NCBI RefSeq assembly: GCF_039541115.1
Contig: NZ_BAABFP010000004.1
Coordinates: 248,001 to 312,000, forward strand
DNA: 64,000 bases
Direction of reading: 5' to 3'
Source: Angustibacter luteus
GTDB taxonomy: Bacteria; Actinomycetota; Actinomycetes; Actinomycetales; Angustibacteraceae
Part shown: positions 2,587 to 12,252 of the stretch, piece after piece
Position numbering within the stretch: position 1 is the first letter of the stretch
Layout: the number at the start of each line of letters is the position of its first letter
Notes under the pieces: model-generated
Databases searched by the model: none
What the model was told of the DNA's origin: nothing
What the model saw: the letters and a program-made list of their open reading frames with translations, nothing else
Translations under genes and position numbers: made by a program

Positions 2587-2733
2587 CGTGCCAACTTACG
2601 TCGGTCGCACTCAGATTCGTACTTCGAGAGGGAAGCAGCCGCACTCCCTGAGTCCACGGCGCTTGACGCGATGAGGCGCTGGCGACCTACACGAGGGCGA
2701 GGCCCACGGGCCAGCGCTCGCTGAGGCAACACG

Positions 2734-3213
2734 CTAGAGGTCTACCTGGACCCGGCGGTCGATGCCGGTGCCGTGAACAGGGTCGCTGCCGCGCACGTGC
2801 ACGTCGTGCTGCACCACCCGCAGGCGGTACAGCCGAAGCTCGGCCGCGCCGGACAGCTCCTCGGGCGTGAACGGCTTCGCGGCGCCGCTGAGTTTCGCGA
2901 AGGCCCGCGCACAGGCAGACTCGAGCTCGTCGTCCGGCACCTGAGCGGCCGTCCCCGTCAGGTACACCGCACTGCCCTGGCCGACCTCCGCAGTGCTGTC
3001 GAACACCACCGCCGCGACGTCCGGACGAGCCGCGACGTTGTGCGAGTGGGCCGAGCCGGGCGACGAGACCCAGTAGACGTCGCGATAGCCGTCGTGCGTG
3101 AAGTACACCGGCGAGACACGTGGCTGACCGTCGTCCTCGGTCGTCCCCAACGTCAGGTACTGGTTGGTGTCCAGCACCTGACGCGCCTCCTCCGCTAGGT
3201 CGTCCGTGCTCAT
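2734..3213 (-). CDS. Pyridoxamine 5'-phosphate oxidase-like flavin-binding protein
   Basis: YLTLGT..DGQPRVSPVYF...YWVSSPGSAHSHNV..RPDVAAVVFDS split-barrel pattern. Confidence 0.8.
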   Translation of the reverse strand: MSTDDLAEEARQVLDTNQYLTLGTTEDDGQPRVSPVYFTHDGYRDVYWVSSPGSAHSHNVAARPDVAAVVFDSTAEVGQGSAVYLTGTAAQVPDDELESACARAFAKLSGAAKPFTPEELSGAAELRLYRLRVVQHDVHVRGSDPVHGTGIDRRVQVDL

Positions 3214-3322
3214 GGGTCCACTGTCCACAGTCGAGGTGTGGAAGCGCTCACCCAGGACGGGTGAAGCGGCTGTCTCACCTCCGCCTCCAAGATCGCGTCA
3301 GGGCCACGGGTCGGGAGACGTC

Positions 3323-3691
3323 ATGATCACAGTCATCGAGCGGATGCCAGTCGGCACGATCGGTCTGAAGGCCAGCGGCAAGGTCACCGAGGACGACTAC
3401 CGCGACGTCCTCGTGCCGGCGGTCACGCTCGCCCGCCAGCAGGGCAAGGTCCGGCTGCTCTACGTGCTCAAGGACGGCTTCGACTCGTTCTCCGCCGGCG
3501 CGATGTGGGCCGACGCCAAGGTCTGGGCGAAGAACATGGACGGCTTCGAGCGGATCGCCCTGGTCGCCGACGCCGACTGGCTCGAGCACGCAGCCAAGGC
3601 CGTGAACCTGGTGGTGTCGGGCGAGATCAAGGTCTTCGAGTCCGACGACGTGCGCGACGCCAAGATCTGGCTCGTCGGCATCGACGACTGA
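3323..3691 (+). CDS. SpoIIAA-like (STAS/SEC14) protein
   Basis: GKVTEDDY...VRLLY...GAMWADAK...FERIALV..ADW...EIKVF...AKIWL pattern; GGGAGA RBS before ATG 3323. Confidence 0.8.
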   Translation: MITVIERMPVGTIGLKASGKVTEDDYRDVLVPAVTLARQQGKVRLLYVLKDGFDSFSAGAMWADAKVWAKNMDGFERIALVADADWLEHAAKAVNLVVSGEIKVFESDDVRDAKIWLVGIDD

Positions 3692-3705
3692 GGGATACCA
3701 ACGCC

Positions 3706-4626
3706 ATGGCCCGTCACGAGCTCCGCATCCGACTGAACCGCTCCACGCTCGCCATGGCTGCGGTCGCCGCGGTGGCGGGAACAGCGCTGCTGGCATCCTG
3801 CAGCACGGATGACGGTGCGCGCCCCGGCCTCAGCCCCACCCGCTCCGTGTCAGCCAGCATCACCGCCACCGTTCCGACACCGACGGTCACGCTGCCGACG
3901 CGCACCACGACGGCCGAGCCCTCTAGCTCAACGACGTCCAGCACGGAGCCCACCAGCGAGCCCACCAGCGAGACCACGACAACCACGTCCGAACCCGAGA
4001 CCTCGACCTCCACGACGACGACCACCAGCACGACGTCCACGACAACTACCACGACGACGGAACCAGAGACGCCCAGCGAGACCACCACCACGACCACGGT
4101 CACCGAGACACCCACCGAGTCGGCTACGTCGAGCCCGACCACCTCCAACCCGGACGCCGCCCCGATCGCGGAGGACTCGCTACCCGTCGGAGTGTGGTGG
4201 CTGATCGCGGCCTTGCTGCTCGCGGCGCTGGCTATCGGCATCCCGCTGCTGATCCGGAGTCGCCGTCGCGCCGACTGGCTGGCTGAGCTGGACACCGCTG
4301 AGGCTGAGGCGATCTGGTTCGCTCGAGCGCTGATCCCGGAGCTCAAGGCCGCGGGCAGCCATGAGCGCGCGGCCGGAGCCTGGGGCGTCTCGTCGGCCAG
4401 GGTCGTCGCCACCGAGGACGCGCTGACCGGTCTGGAAGCCTCCGCACCGGACGACGAGTCCCGCATTCGAGCCACGACGTTGCGCGACGCCGTCCGCAGT
4501 GGGCGCGGGCAGGTCGAGCAGCTGGTCCGGGTGGGCGCCGACGCGACCCTCGGGTTCGGGCTGGAGGACGTCGCCGTCGAGCTCGAACGGGTCTTGCCGC
4601 CGGCGCCACCGCCCGGATCCCCGTAG
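3706..4626 (+). CDS. Putative lipoprotein with Thr/Ser-rich stalk, one TM helix and a C-terminal helical domain
   Basis: Signal peptide ending in lipobox LLASC, long T/S/P/E-rich region, hydrophobic VWWLIAALLLAALAIGIPLLI followed by RSRRR. Confidence 0.7.
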   Translation: MARHELRIRLNRSTLAMAAVAAVAGTALLASCSTDDGARPGLSPTRSVSASITATVPTPTVTLPTRTTTAEPSSSTTSSTEPTSEPTSETTTTTSEPETSTSTTTTTSTTSTTTTTTTEPETPSETTTTTTVTETPTESATSSPTTSNPDAAPIAEDSLPVGVWWLIAALLLAALAIGIPLLIRSRRRADWLAELDTAEAEAIWFARALIPELKAAGSHERAAGAWGVSSARVVATEDALTGLEASAPDDESRIRATTLRDAVRSGRGQVEQLVRVGADATLGFGLEDVAVELERVLPPAPPPGSP

Positions 4627-4817
4627 GCCGACCTACTCGGCCGAGCAGACCCCAAGTGGCCAGGTTTGCGCTCCGTTAGGGATATGTCCGATCCCCGGCG
4701 CGACGTCCCGACGCACGAGTACGCTGAGTGACGAAATCGCGATCACCCCCGGGCGTTCCGTCTGCTGTGTATCTGGCGTGCCCGTTCGGTGCTCCGATTC
4801 AGCGACAGGGGGTCGCC

Positions 4818-5273
4818 ATGACCGAAGCCACTTCGCCGCCCGCCGGCGGTGACGCCGACGTCCTGCTCCTGCACGTCCGGCCCGACACGCTGGAATGGGG
4901 AACCGAGGACGACGACCGCTGGCGGTCCGACCTCGCCGAGCTGCAGCACCTGTTGCGTCGCGAGCTGCGCGACGAGACGCAGGAGCCGCCGCCCGCCGCA
5001 GGCAACCGGGGCGCCGCGGAGATCAGCGACGTCATCGTCGCCCTGGGCAGTGCGGGAGCGATGACGGCGGCGGTCGAGGTCTTCAAGAGCTGGATCAACG
5101 CCCGACCGGGCCGGCGCCAGGTCACGGTCACCATCGAGGGTGCCGGCGTCGAGCAGCGCTCCGTCTGCGTCCAGGCCGACGGGCTCGGCGCGGCCGAGCT
5201 GCGCGACCTTGCCGCCCAGGCGCTAGGTAGCGGTCCGGGGACACCCCCGGCAGGCGAGGCAGAGGCGCGGTGA
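4818..5273 (+). CDS. EACC1-like (effector-associated constant component) small protein
   Basis: 151 aa; GNRGAAEISDVIVALGSAGAMTAAVEVFKSWINARPGRRQVTVTIEG matches my recollection of EACC1 (glycine-rich hydrophobic segment, W, then beta strand). Sits 4 nt upstream of a caspase gene. Confidence 0.7.
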   Translation: MTEATSPPAGGDADVLLLHVRPDTLEWGTEDDDRWRSDLAELQHLLRRELRDETQEPPPAAGNRGAAEISDVIVALGSAGAMTAAVEVFKSWINARPGRRQVTVTIEGAGVEQRSVCVQADGLGAAELRDLAAQALGSGPGTPPAGEAEAR

Positions 5274-5277
5274 GGAC

Positions 5278-7233
5278 GTGGGCTTCCGGGCACTGCTGAT
5301 CGGGAACTGGAAGTACGCGCACCCCGACGGAGGCATGGCAGAGCTCAGCGGCCCGCGCCACGACATCCAGGCCCTCCGGTCCGCCCTCGTCCACCCCACG
5401 TTCGGGCTGTTCAAGACCGAGGACGTCGTGGTCAAGGAGAACCTCACGGCCGACGGCCTGTCCGACGCCCTCGCGCTGGCCGCGGACCAGAGCACGCCGG
5501 ACGACGTCCTGCTCATCTACTACTCCGGGCACGGCGAGCGCCTCGGCGCCGAGCAGCAGCTGGGACTTCTCGGCGTCGACGTCCCGTACGAGCGGCGGAT
5601 GAACCGCGCCCTGCACACCCGGCTGCTCCGCGACTGGCTCGACGGCGCCCGCGCCAAGTCGACCATCCTCGTCCTGGACTGCTGCTACGCCGGTCAGTAC
5701 CGCGCCGACGAGCTCGTGGACGACGACCTGCTGGCGACGTTCGGCCGGGGCACCGTCGTGCTCTCCAGCGGTGGCAACCAGGTCGTCCCCGACGAGGGCG
5801 AGGCCGACGGTCCGAGCGCGTTCACCGCAGCGCTCGCCAAGGTGCTGGTCGACGAGAACCTGGTGGGTACCAACGGAGTTCTGACGGCCGAGGACGTGTA
5901 CGCCGCCCTGGACCGCTTCGAGCCGCGGCTCAAGCCGCGGCCGCACCGCAACCTCGCGGCCGAGGGACGGATCGGCCTGGCGATGCGGCCGCGACCGGAG
6001 CCCTCGGCCAGCCCGATGGTCCTGCGTGGGTGGCCGAAGAACCTGCGAGTGATCGACGTCGGCATCACCTTCGCCGGTGAGCTCGTGGTCGCGACGTGGG
6101 ACCGCGACGGCAACGGCCGGATCACCAACGACGAACGTGATGTCACGGCCCTGGACCCCACCCGGCTCGCTGCCATCCGTCGGCTCTGCCAGCTGGCGGA
6201 CGCGGTGATGCGCGCCAAGGACTACAGCGACCCGCCGTGGCAGAAGCGGGCTCGTCGCGCGCTGGAAACCGCTGGTGCCAACCTGTTCCAGGCCGCCCTG
6301 CCCACCCCGATCCAGAACCTGCTGCACCAGGCCGAGGACGAGGCCGACGTGGTCGTCCAGCTGAACCTCACGTTCGAGCCGCCGTGGACGAGCCTCGCGG
6401 AGTACCCCTGGGAGTTCATGCACGTGCCGTCCGACCAGGGTGTCGACCCCACCGGTCTGGCGCAGCGCAAGCTGGTCGTGACCCGCGCTGGTCGATCGAC
6501 CGACCGGCCGGGCCGGGACTCCGATATCGCGGACGTCGCGGTGGTGAGCAGCGTCGTGCACCCGTACACGCGGCTGTCCAGCCGCCTCGGTGCCGAGCTG
6601 GTGGCGATGCCGTCCGTTCGAACGCTCACGACCGCGGACGACGGCAGGCCGGCGGACTGGGCGGACCTGATGGACGCGGTCGACCAGAAGCCGGAGTACC
6701 TCGTGATCTGCGCTCCGCTGCTGCGCTCGACGCGCGATGGCATCCCTTCTGCCAAGCTCGGTTTCCGCGGCGCTCGCGAGACCGACTGGCGCACAGCGGA
6801 ATCGCTGGCCGACGAGCTGCGCAGCGCAGGTGGGCTCAGTGCCGTCGTGGTGGCGTCCGTCGCGGCCGAGACCGGACTCGACGCGATCCGCGCCGCGCCC
6901 AGTGCCGCCGCCGCACTCAACGCCGAGCTGGGCGTCCCAGTCGTGTTCATCTGCCACACGCCAGGCCTCGAGGGTTACGTCGATGACGCCGATCCGGAGG
7001 AACCGAAGACGTTCGTCGGTCTGCTGCTCGCGGCCCTCACGAGCGGTCACGACCCGGTCCGCAGCATGTGGTTCGCCCGGGACCGAGTGCTGCGCTACAT
7101 CCCGTCCCACCTGCAGCCGACGTTCGGCGTCCCTGGGGTGTTCTACGGCGCAGGGCAGCGTCGCCGTGCCGGCGGTGCCGGTGAGCGGCAGCCCGGTCGG
7201 CTGGGCAACCGGTCCAGTCCAGGGAAGGGCTGA
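5278..7233 (+). CDS. Caspase-like peptidase (C14) fused to a degenerate CHAT-like domain
   Basis: N-terminal RALLIG, YYSGHG (His85), VLDCCYAG (Cys136), SAFT. C-terminal half keeps CHAT landmarks (GANLFQ, LAEYPWEFM, AESLADEL, GVPVV, AALTSG...AR...PGVFY) but has no His-Gly or Ala-Cys catalytic motif. Confidence 0.85.
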   Translation: MGFRALLIGNWKYAHPDGGMAELSGPRHDIQALRSALVHPTFGLFKTEDVVVKENLTADGLSDALALAADQSTPDDVLLIYYSGHGERLGAEQQLGLLGVDVPYERRMNRALHTRLLRDWLDGARAKSTILVLDCCYAGQYRADELVDDDLLATFGRGTVVLSSGGNQVVPDEGEADGPSAFTAALAKVLVDENLVGTNGVLTAEDVYAALDRFEPRLKPRPHRNLAAEGRIGLAMRPRPEPSASPMVLRGWPKNLRVIDVGITFAGELVVATWDRDGNGRITNDERDVTALDPTRLAAIRRLCQLADAVMRAKDYSDPPWQKRARRALETAGANLFQAALPTPIQNLLHQAEDEADVVVQLNLTFEPPWTSLAEYPWEFMHVPSDQGVDPTGLAQRKLVVTRAGRSTDRPGRDSDIADVAVVSSVVHPYTRLSSRLGAELVAMPSVRTLTTADDGRPADWADLMDAVDQKPEYLVICAPLLRSTRDGIPSAKLGFRGARETDWRTAESLADELRSAGGLSAVVVASVAAETGLDAIRAAPSAAAALNAELGVPVVFICHTPGLEGYVDDADPEEPKTFVGLLLAALTSGHDPVRSMWFARDRVLRYIPSHLQPTFGVPGVFYGAGQRRRAGGAGERQPGRLGNRSSPGKG

Positions 7234-7238
7234 CGACC

Positions 7239-9683
7239 GTGACCACGTGGGATGCGGGAGTCCGCGAGGCGAGGATGCGCCTCGCCCGCGCCCTGATCGG
7301 GCCGGGGGCCACGGACCGGGCGATCCGTGAGGCCGAGAAGCAGGCATTGCGAACCCTCGACTCGATCGAGGCGGACGGGCGTGCCGGGCGGGACGTCGAG
7401 GGTCCCGCGAAGTGGGAGGTCCTGGAGGAGCTGGCCGGGATCGCTCGCCTTCGCGGCCAGGCTCAACCGGAGATGGAGCGGCTGGTCGAGGCCGTCATCG
7501 CCGCACCGCCCGACCCGGCGGCGCGGCTGGCGGACCAGATCGTGCAGCTCCTCGAGAGCTCCGGTGATGGGAGCCTGGTCGAGGGGCTGCCGAACGAGGT
7601 CGCGTCCCGACTCTGGGAGGCCGCCCACGACGACGAACGTCCGGACGCCGTCGTCCAGCTGGCCGCCCGGCTCGCCCTCGCGCGCGGGCACGTCACCGCA
7701 GCGAGCGAGGTGAGCCGCCAGCGCGACTCCGTCGCCTCCGCTGGCGCTGAGCTGCACGCCGTCAGCGTGGTCGCCGCGGTCCTCGACCTCCTCGCCGAGG
7801 GCGACACCGGAGCGGCCGAGGCGCGGTTGGCCGAGGTCGGCCACCTCGACCGTGAGCCGTCCGTGGTGCTGGCCGACGCGCTGCTGCGGTACGCCCGGGG
7901 CGATCTCGAGGGTGCCCGCCGCCTGGCTGAGGACTGGTCCGGCGCGGGCGACGTGGGGACGGTCGCGGTGATCGCGCTGCTCCGGCAGGCGGTGGACGAG
8001 GCGGACGCCGCGGGGATCTTCAAGGCGGCGCGCAGTGCCGCGACCCGTACGGTCCGGCACGACCCGTCGTCCGGGGAACCGGTGCTGCTGCGGGCCCAGG
8101 TGCTGCTCGAGGCCGGGGTGGAGCTCGAGCTCGGGCGCGAGCTGCTGGCCACCGCCGTGACCCGGCTCGGCTCGCCGTACGCGCTGCCGTGGTGGCGGGT
8201 CCAGGACCGGGCCCGTGACGACCACCGGTACACCTACTTCCGCGTCGAGGTCGCCGCGGCGCTCGAGAACCCCGGCGAGATCCCCGGCCTGGCCGCGTCC
8301 TTCGAGGCGACCAGCCTCACGACGTACGCGCAGGACGCGAGGTTGCGCGAGCTCTGGGGCGGCGCCGCGGACGACCCGGACGAGGCTTTGAGCCTGCTCC
8401 GCGCCGCGGCGTCCGACTACCGGAACGCCGACGACATGCCCGCAGCGGTGCGGTGCCTGCGCGCCGTCCGAGACCGCGATCCCGACGCCAGGTCGGGCTT
8501 GGAGCTGGTGGATGCGCTGTGGGCCGCCTCGTTCGCCACGACGCCGGAGGTCGGCGACAAGCTCGTAGCCGAGGGGCTCGCACTGATGGGTGCGCTGGAG
8601 GGGCAGCACGGACCGGACGCGATCGGTCGGGCGAGCCTGGTGTGGGGGCTGTTGCTGGCGCGGGCGGACGCGATGGCTGCCGCTGATCACCCGGTCCGGA
8701 CCAGCCAACGGTGGCGACCGCTGCCGCACCTGCTGCTGGCGGCGCTGCTCGACACCGAGGCTTCGTACACCTGGGCGCACCTGGCCTGGGCGTGCGTGGA
8801 TGCTGATCTTCAGTGGCCGGCCGCGTGGTCCGGTCGGCGGGCGCTCGACCTGCGTCCGGGCGACAACTGGCTGATCGAGACGCGCGTGGTGTCCGAGACG
8901 AACTGGTGCGGCGTCCTCGACGACGACCTGCGGGACTGGTTGCAGCAGGTGCCGTCGGACGTCGCCGCCCCAGGCTGGGTGGCCACGGTGCAGGCGTACG
9001 ACCTGCTGGTCCGCGAGCTGGCGCCCGACGCTGCGGACCTGGTGCCGCAGATGGACTTCGACGCCTGGTGGGCCCGCGAGATCCGGGTGCAGTCCCTCGC
9101 GCTCGGCCAGTCCCTGTCGGCGGCCGTCCGCGACCTGCGCGACCTGGTCCAGGAGGCCGAGAGGCGCGGTCAGCTGGTCGACGCGGCCTGGTACTGCCTG
9201 CTCGACGACCCCGAGCGAGGGCGAGTACTGGCCGAGGAGGTGGACGCCGGGGGCGAGCGAAGCCCCAGCGCGGAGCTCCGGCTGGCGGCCATCCAGATCA
9301 TGACGTCCGCTGGGACGGCGGGCGCCGACCGGTACGCGGCGACCCTGCGGCGAAGCCGCCGACCCTCGCGGCTCGTCCAGGAGAGCACGATCGCGCTGCC
9401 GCTGCTCACCCTGGCCCAGCAGGACGACGAGCCGTTGTCGGTGTTGCGATCGCTCACCGACCTGGCGCGCTCACTGGCTGACGACGTCGAGCGGGCTCCT
9501 GCCCTGACGGTCGAGCTGGAGTCGCAGGAGGCCTGGTGCGACGACAGCGAGCTGGCCGCTCTCGTGCGTCGCCTGCTCGACGTCGCGGACTCCGGGTCAC
9601 CGGACGACGGCGCGCCGCCCGACCTCCCCTGGCTGCCGGGTGCGGCGACGGTCGCCGCCGCCTGGCAGGCCCTGAAGCCGTAG
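7239..9683 (+). CDS. Large alpha-helical TPR-like protein
   Basis: 814 aa, A/L/E/R-rich with TPR-like segments (DPSSGEPVLLRAQVLL; EASYTWAHLAWAC...RRALDLRPGD). Starts 5 nt after the caspase stop. Confidence 0.65.
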   Translation: MTTWDAGVREARMRLARALIGPGATDRAIREAEKQALRTLDSIEADGRAGRDVEGPAKWEVLEELAGIARLRGQAQPEMERLVEAVIAAPPDPAARLADQIVQLLESSGDGSLVEGLPNEVASRLWEAAHDDERPDAVVQLAARLALARGHVTAASEVSRQRDSVASAGAELHAVSVVAAVLDLLAEGDTGAAEARLAEVGHLDREPSVVLADALLRYARGDLEGARRLAEDWSGAGDVGTVAVIALLRQAVDEADAAGIFKAARSAATRTVRHDPSSGEPVLLRAQVLLEAGVELELGRELLATAVTRLGSPYALPWWRVQDRARDDHRYTYFRVEVAAALENPGEIPGLAASFEATSLTTYAQDARLRELWGGAADDPDEALSLLRAAASDYRNADDMPAAVRCLRAVRDRDPDARSGLELVDALWAASFATTPEVGDKLVAEGLALMGALEGQHGPDAIGRASLVWGLLLARADAMAAADHPVRTSQRWRPLPHLLLAALLDTEASYTWAHLAWACVDADLQWPAAWSGRRALDLRPGDNWLIETRVVSETNWCGVLDDDLRDWLQQVPSDVAAPGWVATVQAYDLLVRELAPDAADLVPQMDFDAWWAREIRVQSLALGQSLSAAVRDLRDLVQEAERRGQLVDAAWYCLLDDPERGRVLAEEVDAGGERSPSAELRLAAIQIMTSAGTAGADRYAATLRRSRRPSRLVQESTIALPLLTLAQQDDEPLSVLRSLTDLARSLADDVERAPALTVELESQEAWCDDSELAALVRRLLDVADSGSPDDGAPPDLPWLPGAATVAAAWQALKP

Positions 9684-9705
9684 CAGCCGGTCCCCCACCA
9701 CCCCT

Positions 9706-9776
9706 TTCCGCCACTCAGGCCGGTTTCCGCCGACCGAAAGCGGTCTGAGTGGCGGAAACCGGCCTGGGTGGCGGAA
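9706..9776. repeat. Long inverted repeat (REP-like element or bidirectional terminator)
   Basis: 26-nt arms 9706-9731 and 9751-9776 with one mismatch, inner hairpin GACCG-AAAG-CGGTC; between convergent genes. Confidence 0.8.
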
Positions 9777-9793
9777 GCGGGTGGGGCAGGGGG

Positions 9794-10624
9794 TCAGTCG
9801 AGGGGGTCGGTGAGCGGGTCCTTCTTCGAGGACGCCTTGCCGTTGGCCTCGGCGGCGTCCGTGATGGCCTCCTCCGCCGCCGCGCTGTCCGCGGTCAGAC
9901 CGGGGACCTCGGCGTCGTCCTCGCCCGCACCGTCGAGCGCCGCCTCGGCGGCACCGGAGTCCAGCGAGTCACCGGCGGACGTGGCGGACGTGGCGGACGT
10001 GGCGGCCGGCGTCGACCAGCTGTTCGCCCCCGGGTAGGTGCCCTCGGGAATGGCCCACGGGTCCTCGGCCGGGCCACGGCTCTGCAGCACCGCCCGCGCC
10101 GCTGCGGCGCCCGCCGCGATGGCGGCGAAGAACAGGAACACCTTCTTCTTGCTGCGCTTCTTCTTCGCGACTTTCTCGCCCTTGGCGACGGCCACGGCGT
10201 CCGCACCGCGGCTCTTGGCGGTGTCCGCGACGTCCGATGCCTTGTCGGACGCCTTCGCGGCGCCGGCCGCACCCGCGGCGGCAGCTGCAGCGGCGGCCGC
10301 GTTCACGGCCTCCACGAGCCGGGGCAGCAGGTCGTCCACGATCTTGTCGCGGGCGGCCTCAGCAGCCGGCGGCACGCGGTCGACCGCGGCCTCGACCTTC
10401 GGTGCGGCCGCCTCGACGGCCGCCGAGGCCTTCGGTGCCGCCCAGTCCCGCGCGTCCCGGGCCTTCGCGGCGGCAGCCGGAGCCACCGTCTCGCGCAGGG
10501 CGTGGCTGGCGCTCGCCACGGCGTCCTGCACCTGGGACTTGGCGTCCTTGGCCTTGTCGGCCGCAGAGTCCTTGACCGAGCTCGCCTGGTCCTTGGCCTT
10601 GTCGGTGCGGCTCTTCGTGAACAC
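9794..10624 (-). CDS. Alanine/lysine-rich membrane-anchored protein (DUF5324-like position next to ppiA)
   Basis: GGGAGG RBS then GTG 10624; KKKRSKKK followed by a TM segment and DPW motif; divergent from ppiA. Confidence 0.7.
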   Translation of the reverse strand: MFTKSRTDKAKDQASSVKDSAADKAKDAKSQVQDAVASASHALRETVAPAAAAKARDARDWAAPKASAAVEAAAPKVEAAVDRVPPAAEAARDKIVDDLLPRLVEAVNAAAAAAAAAGAAGAAKASDKASDVADTAKSRGADAVAVAKGEKVAKKKRSKKKVFLFFAAIAAGAAAARAVLQSRGPAEDPWAIPEGTYPGANSWSTPAATSATSATSAGDSLDSGAAEAALDGAGEDDAEVPGLTADSAAAEEAITDAAEANGKASSKKDPLTDPLD

Positions 10625-10733
10625 GGGCCCTCCCTGGTGATGGTCTGTCGACGTCCCATCCTGCCCTGATGTGGGCAATCTCGCCTACCCAGGGGTAGGC
10701 ACCGGATTCGCCCTCCGTGCGAGGATGTCGCGC

Positions 10734-11258
10734 ATGGACGTCACGCTGCACACGAACAAGGGCGACATCAACATCACGCTCTTTCCCGACCACGCGCCCG
10801 AGACCGTGCGCAACTTCGTCGGCCTGGCCGACGGCACCAAGGAATGGAAGGACGCCGAGACCGGCGAGACCAAGACGGAGCCCTTCTACAACGGACTCAC
10901 GTTCCACCGCATCATCCCCGGCTTCATGATCCAGGGTGGCTGCCCGCGCGGCGACGGCCGCGGTGGCCCCGGCTTCACCTTCGACGACGAGATCGCACCC
11001 GAGCTCGCCTTCGACAAGCCCTACCTGCTCGCCATGGCCAACGCCGGCAAGCAGGGTGGCAAGGGCACCAACGGCTCGCAGTTCTTCATCACCGTCGAGC
11101 CCACCGGCTGGCTGCAGGGCAAGCACACCATCTTCGGTGAGGTCGCCGACCAGTCCAGCAAGGACGTCGTCGACTCCATCGTCGCGGTGCCCACCGGCCC
11201 CGGCGACGCCCCGCGCGAGCCGGTCGTCATCGAGTCCGTCACCACCACCGCCGCCTGA
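10734..11258 (+). CDS. ppiA: Cyclophilin-type peptidyl-prolyl cis-trans isomerase
   Basis: APETVRNFVGLA, FHRIIPGFMIQGG, LAMANAG, TNGSQFFIT, WLQGKHTIFGEV. Confidence 0.96.
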   Translation: MDVTLHTNKGDINITLFPDHAPETVRNFVGLADGTKEWKDAETGETKTEPFYNGLTFHRIIPGFMIQGGCPRGDGRGGPGFTFDDEIAPELAFDKPYLLAMANAGKQGGKGTNGSQFFITVEPTGWLQGKHTIFGEVADQSSKDVVDSIVAVPTGPGDAPREPVVIESVTTTAA

Positions 11259-11295
11259 CCGCAGCACCACCACCAAGGCAACAGGGGACCGACCG

Positions 11296-12174
11296 GTGAG
11301 CACCTCGGCTGAACCGCCGTCCGGCTCACCGGTCGATCCGTCTGCGGAGCCCGTCTGCCCCCGCCACCCCAACCGGGTGAGCTACGTCCGCTGCCAGCGC
11401 TGCGAACGACCCACCTGTCCCGAGTGCCAGCGGCAGGCCGCGGTCGGCATCCAGTGCGTCGACTGCGTGCGCGAGCAGGCGAAGACCGTCCGCTCCGGTC
11501 GCACCGCCTTCGGTGGCCAGATCCGCGACGGCAGACCCGTCGTCACCTTCGCGATCATCGGCATCTGCGTCGTCGTCTACCTGCTGCAACGCCTGCCGGG
11601 CACCGACATCACCGACCGGTTCGCCTTCGTGCCGGCGCTCGCGGACGCCGAGCCGTACCGGTTCATCACGTCGGCCTTCCTGCACTCCCCGGGCTGGCCG
11701 CTGCACATCCTGTTCAACATGATCGTGCTCTACCAGGTGGGCCCGTTCCTCGAGCAGCAGCTCGGTCGGGTGCGCTACCTCGCGCTCTACCTGGTGAGCG
11801 CCCTCGGCGGCTCCGTCGGCTTCCTGCTGCTGGCCAACCCGCTGAACCCGTTCTCGTGGGGCGCCAGCGTCGTGGGCGCGTCCGGGGCGGTGTTCGGCCT
11901 CTTCGGCGCTCTGCTCATCGTGCAGCGCCGACTCGGCCAGGAGTCCGCCGGCGTGATCGTCTTCATCGTGATCAACTTCGCGCTCGGTTTCGTCGTCCCG
12001 AACGTCGCCTGGCAGGGTCACCTCGGCGGGCTGATCACCGGCGCTGCGGTGGGCCTGGTGATGGCGGCGCCGGTCAAGCAGCACCGGACGGCCATCCAGA
12101 TCGCCGGCACCCTCGCGATCGTGGCCGTCCTCGTCGTCCTGTCGGTGTGGAAGCTGTCCACGGCCGTCTTCTGA
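11296..12174 (+). CDS. Rhomboid family intramembrane serine protease with N-terminal B-box-like zinc finger
   Basis: CPRHP...CQRCERPTCPEC...CVDC; HILFNM; GASG; WQGHLGG. Confidence 0.93.
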   Translation: MSTSAEPPSGSPVDPSAEPVCPRHPNRVSYVRCQRCERPTCPECQRQAAVGIQCVDCVREQAKTVRSGRTAFGGQIRDGRPVVTFAIIGICVVVYLLQRLPGTDITDRFAFVPALADAEPYRFITSAFLHSPGWPLHILFNMIVLYQVGPFLEQQLGRVRYLALYLVSALGGSVGFLLLANPLNPFSWGASVVGASGAVFGLFGALLIVQRRLGQESAGVIVFIVINFALGFVVPNVAWQGHLGGLITGAAVGLVMAAPVKQHRTAIQIAGTLAIVAVLVVLSVWKLSTAVF

Positions 12175-12177
12175 CGG

Positions 12178-12198
12178 TTGTCCACAGGGTTGTCCCCA
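12178..12198 (+). promoter_or_regulatory. DnaA box pair
   Basis: TTGTCCACA at 12178-12186 (actinobacterial consensus) and TTGTCCCCA at 12190-12198. Confidence 0.65.
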
Positions 12199-12252
12199 CC
12201 CTGGGGATGGAATCACACCTGTGTAAGCAGCACCCCGACGATCAGCGGGGGC

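Follow-up and report, generated by a model that had tools for sequence, protein, structure and literature searches.

The 64,000-nucleotide (nt) stretch of the Angustibacter luteus genome analysed here, referred to as the window (GCF_039541115.1, contig NZ_BAABFP010000004.1, positions 248,001-312,000; all coordinates below are those of the window unless another contig is named), carries a cassette of three adjacent genes that encode an EACC1 protein, a caspase fused to a pseudo-CHAT domain and a TPR-like protein. We read this cassette as a protease-gated cell-death module of the abortive-infection type, an EACC1-caspase module of a rare three-part build, and we give this reading a probability of about two in three. 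Established here are the identities of the parts, the loss of the CHAT catalytic dyad, the strict linkage of the three genes and the fact that the cassette is an inserted accessory element. The EACC1-caspase core and its likely mechanism are already known; as far as the texts of the two papers cited below go, the new part is the sensor or regulator, namely the pseudo-CHAT domain together with the TPR-like protein. The cassette is laid out as follows.

4615..9690, + strand: inserted cassette, made up of promoter region and three genes, delimited by same-genus alignments
4818..5273, + strand: gene 1, EACC1, predicted latent pore-forming effector (Pfam PF19953)
5001..5021, + strand: predicted cleavage region of gene 1, G62-N-R64-G65-A-A-E68, placed by inference at a conserved basic residue
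5278..5997, + strand: gene 2 residues 1-240, caspase-fold protease domain (Peptidase_C14, fold and dyad)
6046..7155, + strand: gene 2 residues 257-626, pseudo-CHAT domain (structural matches and profile link; dyad lost)
7239..9683, + strand: gene 3, TPR-like solenoid, predicted sensor or regulator partner (AlphaFold2 model, Foldseek, gene order)

Three open reading frames (ORFs) occupy the + strand at 4728/4818-5273, 5278-7233 and 7239-9683. An earlier note on this DNA had described three co-directional genes with spacers of 4 and 5 nt, and the ORF coordinates confirm this: the stop of gene 1 (5271-5273) is followed after 4 nt by the GTG of gene 2, whose own stop (7231-7233) is followed after 5 nt by the GTG of gene 3. 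The most likely start of gene 1 is ATG 4818, since a Shine-Dalgarno sequence, AGGGGG (4807-4812), lies 5 nt 5′ of it and the residues encoded upstream of this ATG are not conserved among homologues. Genes 2 and 3 are taken as coding frames because the G+C content of their third codon positions reaches 0.89 and 0.91, respectively; the window itself is high-GC DNA, at about 0.65-0.76. The database copy of gene 3 begins 12 residues further in (802 amino acids (aa)), and the start at GTG 7239 is favoured because the alignment of homologues is conserved from about residue 3.

EACC1 is the small protein encoded beside caspases of this type, and gene 1 (151 aa) matches its Pfam family PF19953 with an E value of 7.3e-9 and 36 bits against a gathering cut-off of 23.6, residues 36-134 covering profile positions 6-105 of 107. 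The EACC1-like nature proposed in the earlier note is thereby upheld. The single helix by which section 33 of Kaur et al. 2020 (PMC7159879) recognises EACC1 is present as a small/Gly-rich hydrophobic helix at residues ~70-92 (VIVALGSAGAMTAAVEVF...), which aligns with a conserved segment in 29 sequences. As expected of an EACC1 gene, it lies directly 5′ of the caspase gene and in the same direction, and so do its counterparts at 9/9 loci of the sub-family; in a wider set, 28 of 80 caspase loci have an ORF resembling gene 1 immediately 5′ of the caspase. A Pfam scan of gene 1 gave no gasdermin match.

The N-terminal domain of gene 2 is supported, by profile and by predicted fold, as a caspase of the EACC1-associated type with an intact dyad, and is predicted to be active. 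It matches Pfam Peptidase_C14 (E 2.7e-16, 60.4 bits against 21.4) and falls 0.3 bits short of the cut-off of NCBIfam NF047832 caspase_w_EACC1 ('caspase, EACC1-associated type'; 139.7 bits against 140). PADLOC, named in the earlier note as a check, answered in part: gene 2 was its sole match, to the generic 'caspase' model, and neither PADLOC nor NCBIfam has a model that matches gene 1 or gene 3. His85 (in SGHG; codon 5530-5532) and Cys135/Cys136 (in LDCC; Cys136 codon 5683-5685) are invariant in 29/29 aligned homologues, and the His85/Cys136 dyad that had been read from the single sequence thus holds throughout the family. In the AlphaFold2 model of gene 2, built from 29 sequences with a mean predicted local distance difference test score (pLDDT) of 80.9, the caspase domain comprises residues 1-240 and aligns with MALT1 (VIA-align Z 23.1, root-mean-square deviation (rmsd) 2.3, 195 residues aligned) and with metacaspase-4 (Z 20.8-20.9). 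In the HMMER alignments, Asp29 and the Asp134-x-Cys136 motif of gene 2 fall opposite LRGCVND and DSC in metacaspase-4, and opposite LVD and DMC in MALT1. The acidic residues at these motifs belong to the pocket of Arg/Lys-specific enzymes.

The EACC1 alignment offers a candidate target for such a pocket. It contains a G-x-[KR]-G motif whose basic residue is found in 29/29 sequences, and in gene 1 this motif, G62-N-R64-G65, stands directly before the Gly/Ala-rich hydrophobic helix. Since the basic residue is conserved throughout and the caspase has acidic pocket residues of the metacaspase/MALT1 type, we predict that EACC1 is cut after or next to the invariant Arg64. In distant EACC1 members an Asp directly follows the motif, and the actinobacterial subgroup has an acidic residue 2-4 positions after it (Glu68 in gene 1).

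The remainder of gene 2, residues 257-626, is supported by its modelled structure and by profile comparison as a CHAT fold, related to bona fide CHAT domains, that has lost the canonical catalytic dyad. The top 1000 chains of a Foldseek structure search were filled by the caspase domain, and a wide VIA-align was needed for the C-terminal domain. This returned the Csx29 TPR-CHAT chains 7y9x_B (Z 17.7, 293 residues aligned, rmsd 4.0), 7y83_D (Z 17.3) and 7zoq_A (Z 16.7), followed by separase 5fc2_B (Z 15.8), SAVED-CHAT 8tl0_A (Z 15.5) and DdvA 8rot_B (Z 15.0); the next matches were unrelated flavodoxin-like folds at Z ~9. Caspase-8/c-FLIP (3h11_B/3h13_A) also appeared, like separase 5fc2_B, among the structural matches of gene 2.

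At the level of sequence, the relationship emerges through an intermediate profile. None of the 29 members is matched by Pfam CHAT (PF12770), not even with the threshold relaxed to E <= 10, and a six-frame PF12770 search of the genome matched three other genes, not gene 2. The full-length family hidden Markov model searched against PDB sequences gave caspase-domain matches only. In hhalign, run with no secondary structure, the C-terminal domain reached a probability of 0.4% against a CHAT alignment of 18 actinobacterial loci whose frames were chosen by absence of stops alone, and the positive control, caspase against CHAT, failed as well (0.1%). When 1.84 billion representatives were searched with a profile of the C-terminal domain from four loci, 252 proteins scored E <= 1e-3, and a Pfam scan covered 48 of the 150 matches listed. 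Half of the scanned proteins (24/48) count as bona fide members of PF12770; they are 363-579 aa long and include P0094 (E 2.9e-16). A further 14 consist of a caspase followed by the pseudo-CHAT domain, eight of TIR_2, caspase and pseudo-CHAT domain, and one of DUF4062, caspase and pseudo-CHAT domain, and one is without a Pfam family. The ESM Atlas feature neighbours of residues 250-630 were CHAT clusters at 0.95, which serves as a lead.

Other architectures turned up in these searches. The TIR_2-fused proteins (P0096, P0100, P0103, P0104, P0105, P0110, P0116 and P0118) and the DUF4062-fused P0117, of 759-833 aa, share the dead CHAT-like domain with its Cys-His motif. Three large proteins with bona fide CHAT domains, in open frames of 924-1100 aa, are encoded elsewhere in the host genome, where the six-frame PF12770 search placed the following loci.

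C2:1027303-1028061, C5:623065-623781 and C8:238756-239868: bona fide CHAT loci

For the catalytic residues, 22 active-looking CHAT relatives were aligned with 38 caspase-fused domains, the Cys counts being read off alignment windows. The relatives display the motifs HFIGHG, LQACES and AMQY, with the catalytic His in 19/22 and the Cys in 21/22; in the caspase-fused domains the CHAT catalytic places read xxxAPx and ETVAxx, and neither residue occurs there in any of them (His 0/38, Cys 0/38), although a His lies two residues away in two of the TIR-fused members. An independent alignment with the 18 actinobacterial CHAT pieces likewise counted His 0/29 and Cys 0/29 in the gene 2 family, the Cys column being shifted by two positions between the two CHAT alignments. 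Together with the fold (Z 15.0-17.7) and the profile link to PF12770, these counts bear out the caspase::pseudo-CHAT fusion that the earlier note had proposed. His560 is present in 38/38 caspase-fused domains and Cys559 in 33/38 (codons 6952-6957), at columns where the CHAT relatives have an invariant Gln (22/22) and then mostly Tyr, and Arg483, Asp535 and Arg538 are invariant in the gene 2 family of 29. From this replacement and these invariant residues, the alignments indicate that the pseudo-CHAT cleft region is conserved but re-built.

Gene 3 encodes a protein of 814 aa for which TPR-like alpha-solenoid, by predicted fold, is a fair description. Its AlphaFold2 model (pLDDT 87.4) contains paired helices only, and the top Foldseek matches are Ctr9, Ski3, IFT-A, SPINDLY and TPR subunits of the APC/C, the best with an E value of 3.4e-8; their TM-scores, at 0.13-0.28, are low, which is common for solenoids of such length. 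The TPR-like label given to it earlier therefore stands by predicted fold and fails by the Pfam TPR models: gene 3 has no significant family match, the TPR_19 model reaching E 0.44 and 11.4 bits against a cut-off of 25. Many Trp and Arg residues are invariant in its alignment. The name 'flotillin family protein' borne by the Cellulomonas alba homologue P0047, 64% identical to gene 3, looks mistaken, as gene 3 has no flotillin/Band 7 match in Pfam or NCBIfam.

The three genes are, by the conservation of their order, one strictly linked unit. Among 5.8 billion clusters, gene 2 has 29 relatives besides itself with at least 78% length coverage and 31-79% identity; gene 3 has 10 besides itself, at 40-71% identity. 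A scan of one genome per species yielded 546 caspase relatives, and 3 of the best 80 extend over the C-terminal domain; all three of these full-length loci have a gene 1 relative upstream and a gene 3 relative downstream. The same arrangement was found at 6/6 full-length loci on metagenome contigs (six of 11 loci with a full-length gene 2 relative), gene 3 being cut by the contig end in two. The order of genes 1, 2 and 3 is thus kept in 9/9 loci, which answers positively the check on co-occurrence raised in the earlier note, and this at considerable divergence: full-length gene 2 relatives at these loci are 33-79% identical, and the lowest identities are 33% for gene 2, 30% for gene 3 and 28% for gene 1. 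The named relatives come from several actinobacterial lineages, namely Actinomycetospora and, by record name, Jidongwangia, Pseudonocardiales and Cellulomonas. No fused form of genes 2 and 3, and no longer form of gene 3, was seen among proteins of 1426-4070 aa, a finding that is weak evidence.

Linkage of this kind raises the matter of physical contact between the products. A complex predicted from gene 2 residues 257-630 and gene 3 residues 130-750 received a median score of 0.42 (runs 0.42, 0.28 and 0.46), the best of three controls scoring 0.00; at least 90% of the contacts are shared between runs, and the pLDDT of the partner is at least 83. In the calibration, the mark was reached by 116/157 solved complexes and by 2/215 mismatched pairs, and the scores at or below 0.60 include 18/157 solved complexes and both of the mismatches that passed. 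The model lends weak support to the binding of gene 3 to the pseudo-CHAT domain.

The genomic setting is that of an accessory element. The region is a conserved actinobacterial block with PpiA, rhomboid, DUF881, sortase, PabA and PknB, and at this site the three genes are absent from all four same-genus genomes examined. One of these genomes (G083) shares window positions 2733-4614 and 10010-12206, with 3.9 kb of other DNA in between that includes a PIN-domain gene. In G081 and G082 homology resumes at 9702 and 9691, a few bases past the stop of gene 3, and in G084 about 10 kb of unrelated genes replace window -885 to 9852. From these homology borders the cassette is, as far as alignment can place it, a 5.1-kb insertion (~4615-9690) of three genes with no mobility gene, lying in a variable spot. 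At the cassette position in G083 (L117:13813-14462), a small ORF followed by the PIN-domain gene has the look of a VapBC-type toxin-antitoxin pair, which suggests that the site gathers different accessory modules. The search for direct repeats at the insertion borders gave only a 9-nt match at chance level.

The cassette is also rare. Gene 3 was found in 1/41 genomes searched, the host itself, and not in the 5/5 other same-genus genomes, the 14/14 of the family or the 40/40 relatives, some of these genomes being incomplete. The C-terminal domain profile matched 1/401 sampled genomes of the phylum, again the host alone. On viral contigs, none of the 18 pattern matches was a relative, and tblastn gave no match to gene 3 on plasmids.

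Two papers provide the frame for a mechanism. The definition of the two-gene EACC1-caspase 'System 4' goes back to Kaur, Burroughs, Iyer and Aravind (2020, PMC7159879), who described as many as 50 different domains that can follow the caspase in the same protein, conjectured that EACC1 is a membrane sensor and associated EACC1 systems with a multicellular habit in 650/671 organisms (Table 1). A later preprint (10.1101/2025.11.14.688446) showed that the EACC1 protein of Ktedonobacter racemifer is cut by the adjacent caspase-Avs12 fusion (EACC1-KrAvs12). There, toxicity resided in the C-terminal EACC1 fragment only, only cleaved EACC1 permeabilised liposomes, and mutation of the catalytic Cys or deletion of EACC1 removed toxicity; the protease was constitutively active in vitro and trigger-dependent in cells. 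The sensors fused to the protease differ between members. Those reported for EACC1 modules are of STAND, DGR and chaperone type, and in the preprint fusions to DnaK-like chaperones accompany a suggestion of stress sensing. In light of this work, the membrane-component role that the earlier note had assigned to gene 1 is right in direction and too modest, EACC1 being there the death effector and more than a membrane component. The novelty it had claimed for the whole combination was overstated, the core being the named 'System 4' and its mechanism having been tested in the preprint.

Because genes 1 and 2 are homologous to their Ktedonobacter counterparts, the cassette is best read as using the effector step found there. 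Gene 1 would provide a latent EACC1 monomer, and the caspase of gene 2 would be the protease that cleaves it. The pseudo-CHAT domain and the gene 3 solenoid may together form a unit that holds the caspase off and switches it on at a trigger, for which a protein of a phage or some change brought about by infection is the likeliest candidate. The active caspase would then cut the EACC1 linker before the Gly/Ala-rich hydrophobic helix, at or next to Arg64, whereupon the C-terminal EACC1 fragment would oligomerise into membrane pores and the cell would die. That cleavage releases a pore-forming fragment is taken from the preprint on the Ktedonobacter member, and by analogy with it gene 1 is expected to be the protease-released membrane pore former. 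The sensor role of the pseudo-CHAT and TPR pair, the site of the cut and the role in defence are what we infer for this cassette.

Several points weigh against this reading. The mechanism is carried over from another member, and the present cassette and its close relatives are known from sequence alone. The EACC1 partner tested in the preprint is a STAND (Avs) fusion that oligomerises on ligand binding, which does not indicate a route of activation through a pseudo-CHAT domain and a TPR protein. A basic P1 residue also conflicts with the Asp cut site of the preprint (10.1101/2025.11.14.688446), where an AlphaFold model and the sizes of the fragments led to Asp49 as the proposed site. The predicted interface between genes 2 and 3 is weakly supported, and the invariant Arg483, Asp535, Arg538 and Cys559-His560 show that the 'dead' domain is under selection for some function. 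Viral contigs and plasmids, as searched, revealed no phage, prophage or plasmid context. The cassette lies in a conserved cell-division region near PpiA/PknB, where a non-defence role is possible, and PADLOC contributes a generic 'caspase' model for gene 2 and none for gene 1 or gene 3.

How the caspase might be switched on can be imagined more closely. In the tandem of caspase and pseudo-CHAT domain, with or without TIR, the dead domain with its re-built cleft could act with the TPR solenoid as a trap that mimics a substrate and captures a peptide or protein of a phage, the occupied dead cleft then licensing the caspase. We offer this tentatively, as a possibility with the odds against it. 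If true, the arrangement would give prokaryotes an equivalent of caspase-8/c-FLIP or the pseudo-protease domain of separase, and would constitute a sensor type apart from the STAND, DGR and chaperone sensors of EACC1 modules.

A protease-gated module could also be controlled by release of an inhibitor. In such an arrangement gene 3 and the pseudo-CHAT domain would be a clamp on a competent caspase, and death would follow when the gene 3 protein is depleted or displaced, as in a toxin-antitoxin pair, for example during phage-induced shut-off of host expression. The genes are translationally coupled, with spacers of 4 and 5 nt, as in toxin-antitoxin operons; pseudo-protease partners are known to regulate caspases, as c-FLIP does caspase-8; and the predicted contact between gene 3 and the pseudo-CHAT domain (0.42 against 0.00 for the best control) lends this arrangement, too, weak support. 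It would also suit a protease that is constitutively active in vitro and trigger-dependent in cells, as reported for the EACC1-cleaving enzyme (10.1101/2025.11.14.688446). We nevertheless think it unlikely, because a conserved 814-aa solenoid in which many Trp and Arg positions are invariant is bigger than a simple clamp would call for, and the TPR arrays of other defence proteins usually bind ligands.

Less probable still is that the C-terminal domain of gene 2 is not dead, and that a re-wired protease or a metal or ligand site built around Cys559-His560 makes the cassette a two-protease cascade or a small-molecule sensor. The near-complete conservation of this pair in the caspase-fused domains (His560 38/38, Cys559 33/38), set against Gln (22/22) and mostly Tyr in the active CHAT relatives, speaks in its favour, as do the three residues invariant in the family of 29, and by predicted strand order these residues would lie at the C-terminal ends of the strands, where the cleft of the fold is found. 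Adjacent Cys and His residues, on the other hand, correspond to no known catalytic arrangement of clan CD, and Cys559 is replaced in 5/38 domains.

The model put forward in section 33 of PMC7159879 reverses the roles of the parts: a membrane EACC1 sensor would activate the caspase, and autoproteolysis would free the C-terminal domain, here the pseudo-CHAT domain with the TPR protein, as the effector. This was its authors' inference, and the C-terminal region is indeed the variable part of the system; later experiments make EACC1 both the substrate and the toxic part (10.1101/2025.11.14.688446), and neither a dead protease domain nor a repeat protein has any evident toxicity, so that we regard this model as very improbable. 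A module for regulated proteolysis or programmed death that serves in development or under stress, an idea raised for multicellular actinobacteria, is equally hard to credit: the tie of EACC1 systems to a multicellular habit (650/671 organisms, PMC7159879), the DnaK-like chaperone fusions with which stress sensing was raised (10.1101/2025.11.14.688446) and the position among cell-division genes fit it, but the cassette was not found in 5/5 other same-genus genomes or 40/40 relatives, and other cargo occupies the same site in relatives, a pattern typical of accessory defence genes.

Beyond the coding part of the cassette, two further features and several neighbouring genes deserve description.

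4656..4817, + strand: intergenic region between the divergent ORF and gene 1, presumed promoter (by inference only)
9706..9776, no strand: large palindrome, host repeat (folding energy; repeats in genome)

A promoter scan upstream of gene 1 found no sigma-70-like site, and promoter and terminator scans of the locus gave no matches. The divergent ORF at 3714-4655 on the - strand (313 aa) is without a Pfam match; its DNA is 77% identical in one same-genus genome, so that it probably represents a genuine conserved gene. The hairpin that the earlier note had described as closing the operon at 9706-9776 is real, positions 9680-9800 folding at -89.7 kcal/mol (z = -8.8; 0/200 shuffles fold as well), and does not belong to the cassette. 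G081 and G082, both without the three genes, have this palindrome at the corresponding position, and a 20-nt arm of it occurs 8 times in the host genome, on four contigs; on this account it is assigned to the host, where it looks like a REP-like intergenic element of the genus. Lying between convergent genes, it is likely a bidirectional terminator. The dcm/vsr locus noted about 2 kb away is confirmed by Pfam as Dcm (554-2110, - strand) and Vsr (2107-2586, - strand), ~2.2 kb upstream of the cassette. An MTaX1 (methylase-associated X1) protein of 407 aa on the - strand (L121:700-1923), reaching 801 bases before the window, adjoins Dcm-Vsr. The Dcm C5 cytosine methylase, the Vsr mismatch endonuclease and MTaX1 form a three-gene module with a G+C content of 0.65-0.68, below the rest of the window, and this stretch is replaced by unrelated genes in one same-genus genome.

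Protease-gated pore formation is now regarded as a widespread logic of bacterial immunity, parallel to the caspase/gasdermin signalling of animals, and the way in which the protease is switched on is known for few sensor types. The present cassette is a compact, NTPase-free version in which sensing could fall only to the dead protease domain and the repeat protein, and for this reason it might reveal how pseudo-enzymes control caspase-like proteases in bacteria. It also yields a specificity prediction for EACC1-type caspases, namely a basic and not an acidic P1 residue; its practical value will be modest until the trigger is found. As to precedent, the main text of the preprint (10.1101/2025.11.14.688446) makes no mention of a CHAT or TPR partner of EACC1, and the text of PMC7159879, as far as searched, names no such partner either, speaking generically of 'peptidases' and 'superstructure-forming repeats', with source data that may contain one. 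A literature search on CHAT, caspase, TPR and anti-phage systems returned, among the papers listed, only Craspase, DdvA and unrelated systems. Within the texts so searched we did not find an EACC1-type caspase fused to a dead CHAT domain, an obligate third gene or a clade in which TIR precedes the tandem.

The closest known relatives are 'System 4' and KrAvs12, with which the cassette shares a small EACC1 gene directly 5′ of a caspase-first gene with a variable C-terminus. Cleavage of EACC1 to a pore-forming fragment, as in EACC1-KrAvs12, is by analogy the expected logic. The cassette differs from both in that the variable part is a CHAT fold without its dyad, that a third, TPR-like gene is linked and that a STAND NTPase is absent. 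A broader resemblance may be drawn with bacterial gasdermins, where a protease-released pore-forming death effector is likewise encoded beside its protease, of caspase-like or CHAT type, but here the presumed effector is EACC1, a protein of ~150 aa with a single hydrophobic helix and not of the gasdermin fold.

For the regulatory part, the comparison shifts to Csx29 of the type III-E Craspase, the best structural match, in which a CHAT fold also occurs together with a TPR array and the array is regulatory. In Csx29 the TPR and CHAT regions are one chain, the CHAT protease is active, and control is exerted by Cas7-11 with its CRISPR RNA. In the cassette, by contrast, the CHAT domain appears dead by sequence, the TPR-like array is a separate protein, and an additional caspase, predicted to be active, is available for cutting; none of the 17 neighbouring ORFs scanned is a cas/CRISPR gene. 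Separase combines a pseudo-protease and an active protease domain, and caspase-8 pairs with the inactive c-FLIP(L); both systems are eukaryotic. Gene 2 resembles them in placing an active clan CD protease domain beside a homologous inactive one that is a possible regulator, and differs from them in its partners and substrates. The nearest analogies to the cassette would thus be a Csx29-type TPR-CHAT protein that has been split and inactivated, and the active/inactive protease pairs of separase and of caspase-8/c-FLIP.

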